This document shows, one piece after another, positions 3,129-46,770 of a stretch of 64,000 nucleotides of DNA (position 1 is the first letter of the stretch; each line of letters begins with the position of its first letter). The stretch lies in the NCBI GenBank assembly GCA_001029715.1, contig CP011212.1:398936-462935 (forward strand), read 5' to 3'. Position numbers and translations under genes: made by a program. A model generated the notes under the pieces. It saw only the letters and a program-made list of their open reading frames with translations, was not told the DNA's origin and made no database searches. The stretch comes from a candidate division TM6 bacterium GW2011_GWF2_28_16. Its GTDB lineage: Bacteria > Patescibacteriota > Microgenomatia > UBA1400 > PJMF01.

Positions 3129-3174
3129 TCAGCAAATTATAGCAGTCTTGCTAACTTTTCTTCAAAATTGATGC

Positions 3175-3203
3175 TTGCTAAAATACCAGATCATATTTAA
3201 AAT
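3175..3203 (+). promoter_or_regulatory. Candidate sigma70-type promoter (TTGCTA-N17-TAAAAT) driving a short transcript
   Basis: TTGCTA at 3175-3180 and TAAAAT at 3198-3203, with a 17-nt spacer, in otherwise non-coding DNA. Confidence 0.35.
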
Positions 3204-3314
3204 CTTTCAACATGTCGTTAATTACAAATTACTCCCATTTTTTCTTGGTCATTTTGCGCAAGAACGTTGCGGGGTAATCTTGTTGCATTAAAACAGATAA
3301 AAAACAAGAACAAG

Positions 3315-3340
3315 CCCCGCCTTAAGAAGCGGGTTTTTTT
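3315..3340 (+). terminator. Rho-independent terminator (CCCCGC-loop-GCGGG followed by T7)
   Basis: GC stem 3315-3320/3329-3333, 8-nt loop, TTTTTTT 3334-3340. Together with the upstream promoter it delimits a ~130-nt transcript. Confidence 0.55.
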
Positions 3341-3476
3341 GTATTTTTGATCTTTAACATTAACTAAGGGCTACTTTAGTCTTCAATTATTTGAAAGTTA
3401 AGGTAACCCTTTGTGGCTAGAGCAAATCAGCGCTCTAGTTTCGAAGGGAAAATTTTTCATGGTGGAGGAGAAAACA

Positions 3477-3590
3477 ATGGCAATAGGCAAGGGTAAGCAA
3501 AAAAAGTCTTCCGAACATTTGCCGAGATGCCCCCTTTGTGGGGGAAAACACAGGGCAAAATATTGTCCAAGAAAGCAAAAACCCTCTTAA
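3477..3590 (+). CDS. Tiny basic zinc-knuckle-like protein (37 aa), hypothetical
   Basis: ATG preceded by GGAGGAG 8 nt upstream. MAIGKGKQKKSSEHLPRCPLCGGKHRAKYCPRKQKPS with C-x2-C-x3-H-x4-C. Followed 6 nt later by a perfect 11-bp hairpin. Confidence 0.35.
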   Translation: MAIGKGKQKKSSEHLPRCPLCGGKHRAKYCPRKQKPS

Positions 3591-3596
3591 CCAAAG

Positions 3597-3622
3597 CCTC
3601 CGGTCCAGTAATGGACCGGAGG
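3597..3622 (+). other. Perfect 11-bp GC-rich hairpin (CCTCCGGTCCA-GTAAT-TGGACCGGAGG)
   Basis: Read directly from sequence. Lies immediately after the 37-aa ORF; the following 16 nt are AT-rich with TTTATTTT. Confidence 0.55.
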
Positions 3623-3754
3623 CAACAACATTTATTTTGACCAGGATCCTTAATTTTTAAATATTTGAAATTTAAGAATCCTCGTTTTTTTTCTAGAGCT
3701 AGCGCAAAGCGCGCCAATCTTTGGAAAGAGGAAATCTTTTTGGGAGGGTCGTCG

Positions 3755-3811
3755 ATGAAGAAAGATAAGAAGAAGAAAAAAGGACATCGTAATAAAAAAG
3801 GCAACAAGTAG
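3755..3811 (+). CDS. Tiny poly-lysine peptide ORF (18 aa), hypothetical leader or micro-protein
   Basis: ATG preceded by GGGAGGG 7 nt upstream. MKKDKKKKKGHRNKKGNK encoded by an AAG/AAA run. Followed by a perfect 9-bp hairpin. Confidence 0.3.
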   Translation: MKKDKKKKKGHRNKKGNK

Positions 3812-3840
3812 TCGCCTTTAGGTGTCCAACCCTCAATCTT

Positions 3841-3866
3841 TGGTGGCGCCATTTATTTGGCGCCAC
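3841..3866 (+). other. Perfect 9-bp GC hairpin (GGTGGCGCC-ATTTATTT-GGCGCCACC)
   Basis: Read directly from sequence. Lies 30 nt downstream of the 18-aa ORF and ~70 nt upstream of the aspS start. Confidence 0.55.
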
Positions 3867-3934
3867 CAAAATCTTTCCCTTCCTATATTATCTAAAACCT
3901 CTTTTTCAAATTTCGGTTATAATAACTCTTACCT

Positions 3935-5356
3935 ATGCAAAGAACTCTCGTTATTGATTCCTTAGAAAAAGTTGGTCAAACTGTTCGCCTCTGTGGTTGG
4001 GTGGATAGCAAGCGTGATCACGGTAAAGTTACTTTCATTGATTTAAGAGATCGTACTGGCAAGATCCAGGCCGTTGGTATTGGTGGCAAATTGAGTGAGT
4101 TAAGCAATGAGTCAGTTGTTGAAATCACTGGACCAATCAATACTCGTGGCGAAAAAATGGTCAACCCAAATTTGCCAACTGGCTCCATAGAGATTTTTGT
4201 TGAAGATTATAAGGTTCTCAATAAGGCAGCTGAGCTACCAATTCTTGTGGAAGGTGATGGTCGTGATGTTAATGAAGAGATGCGTCTTAAGTATCGCTAT
4301 TTAGATTTGCGTCGTGAGAGAATGCAAAAAATTGTGCGCTTGCGCTCTAAATTTTATCAAGCTCTTCGTGAGCAATTAGAGAAAAAAGATTTTACCGAAG
4401 TTGAAACTCCAATGTTGACCAAATCAACTAAGGAAGGAGCTCGTGATTTCATCGTGCCTTCTCGTTTTAATCCTGGTAAATTTTATGCTCTTCCGCAAAG
4501 TCCTCAACAATATAAACAATTATTGATGACGGCTGGTGTTGAGAATTATTATCAATTTGCTCGTTGTATTCGCGATGAAGATTTACGTGCTGATCGCGGT
4601 TTTGAATTTACTCAGCTTGATCTCGAAATGAGTTTTGTGACTCAACAAGAAGTAATGGATAATGTCGAAGAAATTGTCAAAAATGCTGTCAAAAAAGTTG
4701 GCGCCAAACTCAAAGATGAAGTTTTTCCAGTTATTCCTTACAAAGAAGCAATTGAAAAATATGGTGCCGATAAATTTGATTTGCGCAGTGAGGAAGAAAA
4801 AAAAGAAAATGTTTTAGCTTTTGCTTGGGTGGTTAGTTTCCCATTCTTTAAAAAAGTTGATAAAAAAGACATTGCTGAAGTGCGCGATGGTAAGAGTGGT
4901 TGGACTTTCACTCATAATCCTTTTTCGAGTCCAATTCCAGAATCTATGGAAGATCATAAGAATGCTGAAAATATCGAAAATATTATTACCGCTCAGTATG
5001 ACTTGGTCTGTAATGGTTACGAAGCAGGTGGCGGCAGTATTAGAGCTCATGATCCAGAAGTTCTTAAAAAGACCTTTGAAATCATGGGTTATAGTGATCA
5101 GGAGATTGAAGCCAGTGTGGGCCATATGTTGGAAGCTTTTAAATTGGGCACTCCTCCCCATGGTGGAATTGCTTTAGGACTAGATCGCTTAGTAATGCTT
5201 TTGGCAGGAGAGAATTCACTCAAAGAAACCATTGCTTTCCCAATGAGTTCTTCTGGCAAGACCTCTATCATGGACGCACCAAGCGAAGTTTCTGATGAAC
5301 AACTCAAAGAGTTAGGTATTCTAATCGCTCCTAATTTAGCTACAATGAAAAAGTGA
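3935..5356 (+). CDS. aspS: Aspartyl-tRNA synthetase, bacterial-type core but lacking the GAD insertion domain (473 aa)
   Basis: QSPQQYKQLLM block, CIRDEDLRADRGFEFTQLDLEM (motif 2 region) and GLDRLVMLL (motif 3). A TATAAT box sits 12 nt upstream of the ATG, suggesting a leaderless or near-leaderless mRNA. Confidence 0.8.
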   Translation: MQRTLVIDSLEKVGQTVRLCGWVDSKRDHGKVTFIDLRDRTGKIQAVGIGGKLSELSNESVVEITGPINTRGEKMVNPNLPTGSIEIFVEDYKVLNKAAELPILVEGDGRDVNEEMRLKYRYLDLRRERMQKIVRLRSKFYQALREQLEKKDFTEVETPMLTKSTKEGARDFIVPSRFNPGKFYALPQSPQQYKQLLMTAGVENYYQFARCIRDEDLRADRGFEFTQLDLEMSFVTQQEVMDNVEEIVKNAVKKVGAKLKDEVFPVIPYKEAIEKYGADKFDLRSEEEKKENVLAFAWVVSFPFFKKVDKKDIAEVRDGKSGWTFTHNPFSSPIPESMEDHKNAENIENIITAQYDLVCNGYEAGGGSIRAHDPEVLKKTFEIMGYSDQEIEASVGHMLEAFKLGTPPHGGIALGLDRLVMLLAGENSLKETIAFPMSSSGKTSIMDAPSEVSDEQLKELGILIAPNLATMKK

Positions 5357-46560: not shown

Positions 46561-46770
46561 AATATTTTTATAAAATTACCGCTTGCGCTGATTCTCAATT
46601 CTTGCTACTTTAATTATTGCTGTGGAACATAGTGAAAATCTATGACTGTGCCGCAACGGTAATTCCTTTTTAAGGATTAGTCCGATCTTCAGCAAAAGAG
46701 AAATCTTGACGAGCATCGAGGCTGTATATTTTACTGTCGATGCTCCCTAAAGGGGAGCTTTTTTGTTCAA
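46561..46770 (+). promoter_or_regulatory. Structured leader with alternative hairpins ending in an intrinsic terminator (attenuator/riboswitch-like)
   Basis: Hairpin A is GAGCATCGA (46711-46719) / TCGATGCTC (46736-46744). Its 3' arm overlaps the 5' arm of the terminator GCTCCC(46742-46747)-TAAA-GGGAGC + T6. A further long-range stem lies upstream. Confidence 0.4.

Follow-up and report, generated by a model that had tools for sequence, protein, structure and literature searches.

A predicted stand-alone zinc-knuckle micro-protein of 37 residues and its structured cassette upstream of aspS in a clade of Patescibacteria

We describe here a micro-protein gene located upstream of the aspartyl-tRNA synthetase gene (aspS) in a 64,000-nucleotide stretch of contig CP011212.1 (positions 398,936 to 462,935 of the forward strand; GenBank assembly GCA_001029715.1), deposited as candidate division TM6 bacterium GW2011_GWF2_28_16 and placed by GTDB in the Patescibacteriota. 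This whole stretch will be called the window, and positions are counted from its first letter. Our reading, to which we give a probability of roughly 0.7, is that the window holds a genuine gene for a polycationic zinc-knuckle protein of 37 amino acids, that this gene is the core of a self-contained cassette belonging to a lineage-specific module, and that it would be expressed from a controlled small mRNA to give a nucleic-acid binder. The features on which the reading turns are as follows:

3464-3470, plus strand: Shine-Dalgarno (SD) sequence GGAGGAG, with a 6-nt spacer (AAAACA) before the ATG
3477-3590 including the stop codon, plus strand: open reading frame (ORF) of the 37-residue Cys-Cys-His-Cys (CCHC) micro-protein, with ATG at 3477-3479 and TAA at 3588-3590
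3528-3569, plus strand: putative zinc-knuckle core C-P-L-C-G-G-K-H-R-A-K-Y-C-P, supported by its invariant residues, an AlphaFold2 (AF2) model and a profile match in the PDB

The product, MAIGKGKQKKSSEHLPRCPLCGGKHRAKYCPRKQKPS, contains 11 lysine plus arginine residues against a single acidic residue and has an isoelectric point (pI) of 10.3. The ORF has a GC content of 44%, compared to 34% for the window. A first-pass annotation, made from the letters of the DNA and a list of their ORFs, had drawn attention to the strong SD, the ORF, its very basic product and the locally GC-rich character of the region in an AT-rich genome, and all of these are indeed present (GGAGGAG, ATG at 3477, stop ending at 3590). 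Two in-frame codons further upstream, ATG at 3459 and TTG at 3411, were judged less likely starts than 3477, because the SD falls between these and 3477 and the orthologues start right after their SD. Four independent public assemblies of this species agree fully (100% identity) over 3129-3934, so the sequence is not an assembly artefact.

Relatives of the locus were collected by a genome scan with aspartyl-tRNA synthetase (AspRS), which yielded 80 loci, all from metagenome-assembled genomes of Patescibacteria, also termed CPR (candidate phyla radiation). Twelve of the 80 are close relatives with an AspRS identity of 79-90%, labelled Pacebacteria, Microgenomatus or Parcubacteria group; a distant comparison set consists of 63 relatives with an AspRS identity of 73% or less. 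An ORF with the pattern C-x2-C-G-x2-H-x4-C-P is found directly upstream of aspS, at the syntenic site, in nine homologues, of which L001, L004, L006, L007, L008, L011 and L021 came from a six-frame motif search and L082 and L083 are metagenome loci. The Cys/His motif comes back at this syntenic position in 8 related genomes. In the remaining ~730 kb of loci, translated in six frames, the looser pattern C..C...H....C gave only two unrelated matches. Every one of the nine keeps an open frame of 30-50 codons, an ATG or GTG start, a GGAGG or GAGG situated about 4-8 nt upstream of it and, shortly after the stop codon, a perfect GC-rich hairpin, the sequence of which differs between them.

The residues C, C, G, H, C and P of the pattern are invariant in the eight sequences that were aligned, and likewise in all nine of the codon table, where each is written with two to four synonymous codons (Cys TGC/TGT; Gly GGG/GGA/GGC; His CAC/CAT; Pro CCA/CCC/CCG/CCT). 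All other positions are variable, and the tails diverge. The closest pair of homologues, L011 and L083, differs by seven synonymous versus four non-synonymous codon changes, and eight of the 14 nucleotide differences fall at third codon positions. Judged from these codons, the ORF is under protein-level purifying selection on its four metal ligands and on the Gly and Pro, and 3477-3590 is very probably a real coding gene. The first-pass annotation had proposed as a check the conservation of the ORF and of its Cys/His spacing in related genomes, and had named a hairpin conserved beside a decayed ORF as the outcome that would speak for an RNA element. The comparison favours the protein, since the nine homologues keep frame, SD and invariant ligands, and a decayed ORF with a retained hairpin was seen in none of them.

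The metal-binding motif, CPLCGGKHRAKYC, is encoded at 3528-3566 and has the arrangement C-x2-C-x3-H-x4-C. It had been called zinc-knuckle-like from the outset; the motif is present and conserved, but its spacing is not that of a canonical zinc knuckle, with three rather than four residues between the second Cys and the His. AF2 assigns the knuckle (residues 21-30) a predicted local distance difference test score (pLDDT) of 88. When a profile of the family was compared with the sequences of the PDB, yeast eIF3g came first (CRLCGNDHMTMNCP, E = 0.008), followed by the CCHC knuckle of TUT7 (E = 0.014) and uS14 type Z (E = 0.03). The Pfam family of eIF3g (PF12353) was also the most recurrent sub-threshold match, with four of the eight members scoring 15.1-15.6 bits against a gathering threshold of 24.4 bits. 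The canonical zf-CCHC family (PF00098) did not match the window protein even at E ≤ 10 nor any of the eight aligned members at E ≤ 1, which is consistent with the x3 rather than x4 spacing.

An early comparison to bL36 and similar ribosomal proteins did not hold up. The ligand pattern of bL36 is C-x2-C-x12-C-x4-H; this motif is absent, bL36 gave no match in Pfam, NCBIfam or the PDB profile search, and such ribosomal similarity as exists is to uS14 and bL32 and remains below threshold. NCBIfam matches, likewise sub-threshold, included those to type Z S14 (E = 0.079) and to HVO_0416 (E = 0.54). Both tails are basic in the window protein and in L001, L004, L011 and L083, while the N-terminus is hydrophobic in L006 and L007 and the C-terminus amphipathic in L008 and L021. 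From the invariant ligands we consider it likely that metal is bound through the CCHC set. The product is best described, from its predicted sequence, as a stand-alone single zinc knuckle of eIF3g-type spacing with polybasic tails, lying outside the described families.

Three further elements belong to the 3′-portion of the transcript or to its counterpart downstream:

3596-3623, plus strand: perfect 12-bp hairpin GCCTCCGGTCCA-GTAA-TGGACCGGAGGC, beginning five bases after the stop codon, with a 68% GC stem and a 4-nt loop
3839-3870, plus strand: perfect 13-bp hairpin behind a second micro-ORF (see below), kept in L002, L011 and L084
3582-3593, plus strand: CU-rich, anti-SD-like stretch CCCUCUUAACC across the stop codon, the predicted partner of the SD

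The hairpin behind the ORF had been reported as perfect with an 11-bp stem; it is perfect and in the expected place, but the stem has 12 bp. These two hairpins are the only ones in the 64-kb window with a perfect stem that is 8 bp or longer and has a GC content of 50% or higher, and the rarity of such stems, together with the recurrence of the motif at syntenic sites, indicates that the features reported here are not due to chance. Across the homologues the structure of the hairpin behind the micro-ORF is conserved and its sequence is not. The stem at 3596-3623 is followed on the plus strand by AACAACAUUUAUUUU, and by UAAAUCUUUU in relatives; the terminator scan scored this site on the minus strand only. 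The hairpin could act as a terminator and/or a 3′ stabiliser of the micro-ORF transcript. In relatives, micro-ORF hairpins are followed by a conserved (A)AAUCUUU tract and not by an immediate U-run, and the 5′ arms of several of them open with the anti-SD-like sequence CCUCCG.

The transcript from leader to hairpin folds much better than shuffled sequences (z = -6.15); it is a small and heavily structured mRNA that is probably stable. In minimum free energy (MFE) folds of all nine homologues, a CU-rich stretch situated at the stop codon or immediately behind it is the partner of the SD, and the same is seen in the window. Duplex energies compared with 500 shuffles were better than the controls in L004, L011 and L083 and marginal in L007 and L008; with both shuffle controls taken together, the pairing in L007 was counted as significant. 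An occlusion of the SD by the end of the ORF is suggested by these folds.

The ORF is preceded by a structured leader, and a diverged copy of this leader is found between the two micro-ORFs:

3364-3453, plus strand: leader A, a covarying 5′ leader of two hairpins
3638-3733, plus strand: leader B, a diverged copy of leader A recognised by the covariance model R1; it overlaps a promoter-like sequence (TTGACC, 17 nt, AATATT) at 3637-3665

The first hairpin of leader A (H1, ~3364-3404) carries an AT-loop. The second (H2, 3407-3448) has 16 bp and includes a U.U mismatch, which is conserved, next to tandem G.U pairs (UGUGGCU / AGUUUCGA). Twelve copies of leader A share 25 pairs, with 95.9% of cells paired and compensatory changes at 13 pairs. 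None of 500 shuffles was as good, and sliding the partners against each other reduced the pairing to 61% or less. The covariance model R1, built from the leader A copies, scores leader A at 92.4 bits and leader B at 27.6 bits (E = 3e-4); type B leaders were also matched in L002, L011, L082, L083 and L084. No further copies were found by R1 elsewhere in the 64-kb window or in 68 more distant aspS loci. A metagenome scan for the leader gave four true relatives and one random match, and of eight matches in a scan of viral contigs none was confirmed by the covariance model. Rfam gave no match at gathering thresholds over the window, and only chance-level matches at E ≤ 10 for 3150-3950. We also considered a riboswitch-like switch in which CCCUU would have two alternative partners, an AAGGG upstream of it, which would extend H1, and a downstream AAGGG at the base of H2. 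It can be drawn in the window, L001, L002 and L004, and was dropped as a conserved mechanism because L011 and L021 do not have the upstream partner.

Upstream of leader A lies an element with the appearance of an attenuator:

3175-3203, plus strand: sigma-70-like promoter (TTGCTA, 17 nt, TAAAAT) from the promoter scan, 8 nt before a leaderless ATG
3212-3277, plus strand: leaderless 21-residue ORF MSLITNYSHFFLVILRKNVAG, with no SD upstream, conserved in 11 loci
3227-3279, plus strand: attenuator-like helix 1:2, in which AAUUACUCC (codons 6-8, 3227-3235) pairs with GGGGUAAUC (3271-3279, last codon plus stop)
3315-3340, plus strand: predicted intrinsic terminator CCCCGCC-TTAAGAA-GCGGG followed by T7, from the terminator scan; invariant in 11 loci

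Eleven related loci share this promoter architecture, their ATG following the -10 box by 8-10 nt, and the promoter is the likely source of transcripts that read through into the cassettes. The leaderless ORF has the consensus M..x.NYxHFFLVILRK(N/D)VxG in 11 loci, with synonymous changes in its Y, H, F, L, V, R and K codons, and is a candidate attenuator leader peptide. In the RNAalifold consensus, helix 1:2 is paired in 93.9% of cells and three of its pairs covary, while slid partners reach 51% or less. The 5′ arm of the terminator (CCCCGC) can alternatively pair with GCGGGG at 3269-3274 to give an antiterminator helix 2:3, which appears in the MFE fold and is possible in 92% of cells. There is no run of one regulatory codon in the ORF; the peptide NYxHFFLVILRK is conserved instead, and the conserved peptide sequence, in place of a codon run, points to sensing of the nascent peptide or of translation in general as its presumptive role. 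No Rfam family matched this element above threshold; its weak best matches were the Phe, Trp and Leu leaders.

The second cassette, between the first hairpin and aspS, carries its own cargo:

3755-3811, plus strand: second micro-ORF MKKDKKKKKGHRNKKGNK, 18 residues, polylysine, with SD GGGAGGG at 3742-3748

This ORF is conserved in L002, L011, L083 and L084. The window and L083 copies differ at six nucleotides, all in third positions and all synonymous, with no non-synonymous change. At several loci the cargo that follows the leader is of another kind. In L002, L084 and L085, leader A is followed by a lysine-rich ORF (MARKKKPSGEKK...) that is free of or poor in Cys and replaces the knuckle. It is located at 3276-3344 in L002, ~6170-6245 in L084 and ~3215-3295 in L085, and contains two internal hairpins with compensatory changes; between L002 and L085, one A in a homopolymer (A8 versus A9) changes its C-terminal frame. 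In L010, leader A precedes a Cys-rich ORF resembling a mini zinc ribbon (MKCQNCGRKVPDDCNICPYC...), and both L008 and L010 have a second cassette with a C-x2-C-x10-C-x2-C micro-ORF (MARAWCRKCQRVTVFKNGQCQRCCRGK and its L010 counterpart). The tandem cassettes are found at 3334-3432 and 3667-3750 in L008 and at ~3380-3481 and 3712-3804 in L010, the first cargo being a CCHC knuckle or the Cys-rich mini zinc ribbon. The cargo of L008 and L010 indicates that the zinc-binding topology changes while the leader stays. Since the same leader also stands before polylysine or CxxC...CxxC ORFs (L002, L008, L010, L084, L085), the cargo can be characterised as tiny, strongly cationic and often bearing zinc ligands. 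A lysine-rich 28-residue ORF (MASKKKKSRNEKNGKTKGGKNAPNQKGR) lies upstream of aspS at 2925-3011 in L005, with a different hairpin leader and a TATAAT promoter, and may be an independent or highly diverged cassette.

The region concerned is about 800 nt long, lies between an alpha/beta hydrolase gene and aspS, and contains a conserved module that extends beyond the 37-residue ORF; the structured leader, the leaderless ORF with its attenuator and the second cassette had not been remarked on in the first-pass annotation. The flanking genes are rmuC, the hydrolase gene (minus strand), aspS (3935-5356), a D-Ala-D-Ala carboxypeptidase gene and gltX. In 10 of the 12 close relatives, and in none of the 63 distant ones, the 900 nt upstream of aspS contain small SD-led ORFs with at least 35% Lys plus Arg or with zinc ligands, which argues for a recent, clade-restricted invention. 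By this comparison of loci, the module is specific to one clade of Patescibacteria (Microgenomates/'Pacebacteria'-like), where it is found between the hydrolase gene and aspS.

Some other features of these loci were recorded. A perfect TATAAT is present at 3918-3923, 11 nt before the ATG of aspS (3935); with no SD, the aspS mRNA would be nearly leaderless, and the box is kept in relatives (GGTTATAATA). L005, L006, L007 and L021 have a conserved ORF ~300-600 nt upstream of the cassette that ends in ...TPTRTAVEKFT.E.G....W..C.LK.Q.PHDSSR.ER...; this ORF occurs in relatives without the leaderless ORF and attenuator, and in L021 a perfect TTGACA-17-TATAAT promoter lies between it and the leader. 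Elsewhere in the window, an adenosylcobalamin (AdoCbl, cobalamin) riboswitch was identified at 46597-46756 on the plus strand (55.6 bits against a gathering score of 50).

Several observations weigh against our interpretation of the locus. The 37-residue protein and its family reached the threshold of no Pfam, NCBIfam or PHROG model, so that there is no significant homology to a characterised protein, and fold searches with the 37-residue model gave no matches for so small a model. The aromatic residue that stacks on guanine in canonical knuckles is not conserved in the eight aligned members. The hydrophobic or amphipathic tails of L006, L007, L008 and L021 are as compatible with membrane association as with RNA binding, if not more so. 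The replacement of the knuckle ORF in L002, L084 and L085 implies that the knuckle is dispensable at this locus. Among the proposed controls, the SD/anti-SD pairing of the window copy is no better than composition-matched shuffles (105/500; 8/100), helix 2:3 is invariant and consequently has no support from covariation, and the cassettes of L006 and L021 are present without the upstream attenuator.

A different explanation, which we regard as improbable, is that the cassette resembles those of type I toxins: the cationic peptide would be self-toxic or membrane-active, and its mRNA would be silenced by folding of the 3′-end back onto the 5′-end, perhaps aided by an antisense RNA. Tandem, fast-diverging intergenic copies are typical of type I toxin loci such as hok, tisB, ibs and aapA, and here too the cassettes are tandemly duplicated and their cargo turns over fast between relatives. 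A long structured 5′ untranslated region (UTR), a very strong 3′ hairpin, the pairing of the SD at or just behind the stop codon that MFE folding predicts for all nine homologues (significant in L004, L011, L083 and L007) and the hydrophobic or amphipathic segments of L006, L007, L008 and L021 would all be accommodated. The window protein, however, has no hydrophobic stretch at all (11 Lys plus Arg, pI 10.3), unlike nearly all type I toxins, and the invariance of the CCHC ligands speaks for a folded metal site and against a membrane helix. Moreover, the fold-back is not significant in the window copy, and a consensus scan of the minus strand gave nothing promoter-like within the cassettes.

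To the same low degree we entertain the possibility that the product is a lineage-specific ribosomal or ribosome-associated micro-protein comparable to bL36, bL32 and uS14-Z, or to bS22, bL37 and Thx, with the polylysine peptide as a second such factor. Size, charge and a single zinc site are those of small ribosomal proteins; the locus adjoins the translation genes aspS and gltX; the polylysine ORF is under strict purifying selection (six synonymous and no non-synonymous changes); and the sub-threshold matches include uS14 type Z, bL32 and the NCBIfam type Z S14 model (E = 0.079). Yet the motif is unlike that of every zinc ribosomal protein, and no family threshold was reached. Fast-evolving tails and a knuckle that is replaced in L002, L084 and L085 would be unusual for a stoichiometric component of the ribosome, as would restriction to one narrow clade, and an attenuator with possible SD occlusion suggests conditional rather than constitutive high expression.

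That the region is a structured non-coding RNA, either a small RNA or a cis element, with the ORF incidental to it, is very improbable. The transcript is unusually structured, as its z-score shows, the codons of CP.CG themselves form small hairpins, and the alternative cargo of L002 and L084 contains hairpins with compensatory changes. An RNA element would hardly account for six residues kept through synonymous changes in an ORF whose nucleotide sequence is poorly conserved, for differences enriched at third positions, or for an SD and start codon retained in 9/9 homologues; in addition, 30-50 codons remain uninterrupted in a genome of 34% GC, and Rfam gave no match.

Absence from databases had been anticipated for the micro-protein, such proteins being usually unannotated, and the expectation proved correct. 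An exact look-up found the 37-residue sequence not on record; word-indexed searches with the single protein and with the eight-member alignment gave no matches; and phmmer against 1.84 billion protein representatives found no true homologue, the three matches obtained being repeat or low-complexity artefacts in large unrelated proteins. No report of such micro-proteins in CPR bacteria was found in the literature. What public collections hold instead is an ORF of 131 residues on the minus strand (3457-3852) that gene callers place over both micro-ORFs in four assemblies of the same species. That this antisense ORF is the real gene, as those four predictions would have it, is scarcely tenable, given that it has no Pfam match, crosses two SD-led, terminator-flanked ORFs with coding-type conservation, and does not keep its frame in relatives with the two-cassette architecture, where the longest minus-strand ORF is 66 residues in L011 and 65 in L002. 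By sequence comparison the 131-residue call is spurious, and as such it provides a concrete case of automated gene calling erasing real micro-genes from protein databases.

Returning to the zinc-knuckle gene, we envisage the following mechanism. The cassette consists of the structured 5′ leader, the strong SD, the micro-ORF and the long perfect hairpin. Transcription would enter from the promoter of the leaderless ORF, and the 1:2, 2:3 and 3:4 pairings would act as an attenuator: stalling of a ribosome on the conserved NY-HFFL codons would leave segment 2 free and favour read-through into the cassette, while a ribosome that reaches the stop codon would favour termination. Expression would in this way depend, at least in part, on read-through of an attenuator that senses translation. 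In the finished mRNA, pairing of the SD with the CU-rich stretch at the stop codon, as the folds suggest, may then limit translation. The product would fold around Zn2+, and its basic tails would attach to a polyanion, for which RNA or the ribosome is the most plausible candidate, so that it might serve as a nucleocapsid-like chaperone with one knuckle. RNA or the ribosome is proposed because of the composition, the nucleocapsid-like layout and the fact that the nearest sequence matches are RNA- or ribosome-associated knuckles; the assignment of a nucleic-acid or ribosomal target is tentative, and we put it at slightly under even odds.

A bolder proposal, which we offer as speculative and rather unlikely, is that this CPR clade has invented a 'micro-protein operon'. 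A leaderless, arrest-type peptide would sense translation and gate read-through into tandem cassettes, each of them with the same new structured RNA leader. Their interchangeable polycationic micro-proteins, be they an eIF3g-like CCHC knuckle, a CCCC mini zinc ribbon or an 18-residue polylysine peptide, would have RNA or the ribosome as their target and would serve there as chaperones induced by stress or as hibernation-like factors. If this were true, its products would be the bacterial counterpart of the nucleocapsid-type zinc-knuckle chaperones.

The genomes of CPR/Patescibacteria are tiny, so that conserved elements in them are likely to matter; here a seemingly 'intergenic' stretch of ~800 nt contains three conserved micro-ORFs and two RNA structures, none of them in databases. 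Zinc knuckles are considered a fold class that belongs overwhelmingly to eukaryotes and retroviruses, and the present protein, if our reading is correct, would be a clean case of a stand-alone bacterial CCHC zinc-knuckle protein. With the new covarying leader motif and the leaderless attenuator as search handles, more of the micro-protein genes that lie hidden in uncultured bacteria could be brought to light. Should the products bind RNA or ribosomes, they would be additions to the short list of lineage-specific translation-associated micro-proteins.

As far as our comparisons reach, no described family is matched by the protein family, by the leader motif or by the leaderless attenuator, whereas zinc knuckles, zinc-finger micro-proteins (which have been studied well in haloarchaea), attenuators and structured leaders are all known kinds of element. 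With small mRNAs inhibited by fold-back, such as type I toxin mRNAs and the icaR mRNA with its anti-SD in the 3′ UTR, the cassette shares the pairing of the SD with a downstream CU-rich stretch, which in the window copy is statistically weak. The upstream element is similar to leader-peptide attenuators (the trp, phe and his leaders) in possessing a short ORF, mutually exclusive 1:2, 2:3 and 3:4 pairings and a terminator with a U-tract. It differs from these in that the ORF is leaderless and, in place of a run of one regulatory codon, keeps its amino acid sequence.

The small ribosomal proteins bL36, bL32 and uS14 type Z, as well as bS22, bL37 and Thx, are of similar length and charge, with a single zinc site, and uS14-Z and bL32 give the weak profile matches mentioned above. 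Their ligand pattern is another one, however, no threshold was reached, and the family described here is narrow in distribution, fast-evolving and replaceable. The haloarchaeal C(P)XCG zinc-finger micro-proteins, including HVO_0758 and Brz, are described as stand-alone proteins of less than 70 residues with CPxCG-type ligands, which annotation frequently overlooks and which have been implicated in regulation and in adaptation to stress (PMC11241148, PMC10716476, PMC6562870, PMC2253796). Under the definition given in PMC11241148, they possess a pair of C(P)XCG motifs with four Cys; the window protein is within their length range and has a single CPLCG followed by H-x4-C. The haloarchaeal proteins belong to another domain of life, and there is no significant sequence match (HVO_0416, E = 0.54).

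With canonical zf-CCHC knuckles (PF00098), as found in retroviral nucleocapsid, Lin28 and CNBP, the protein has in common the CCHC ligand set, the Gly after the second Cys, the Pro after the last Cys and the basic flanks. A one-knuckle peptide with basic tails approximates to a minimal nucleic-acid chaperone of the nucleocapsid type. The difference lies in the spacing between the second Cys and the His, which is x3 and not x4 in all nine homologues; a recent review treats CX2CX3HX4C as departing from the usual CX2CX4HX4C (PMC12787238). It is the knuckle of eIF3g/Tif35 (PDB 2mjc, 4u1e and 6zu9; the C-terminal part of PF12353) that has the identical arrangement, C-x2-C-G-x2-H-x4-C-P, as seen on comparing yeast CRLCGNDHMTMNCP with CPLCGGKHRAKYCP of the window. 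The likeness extends over ~20 residues and is below the Pfam threshold (15 versus 24.4 bits), and eIF3g, a eukaryotic protein of several domains, has a region that binds eIF3i as well as an RNA-recognition motif, whereas the window protein is bacterial and stands alone with 37 residues. The likeness may be convergent. The nearest sequence to the window protein is the knuckle of an RNA- and ribosome-binding translation factor.

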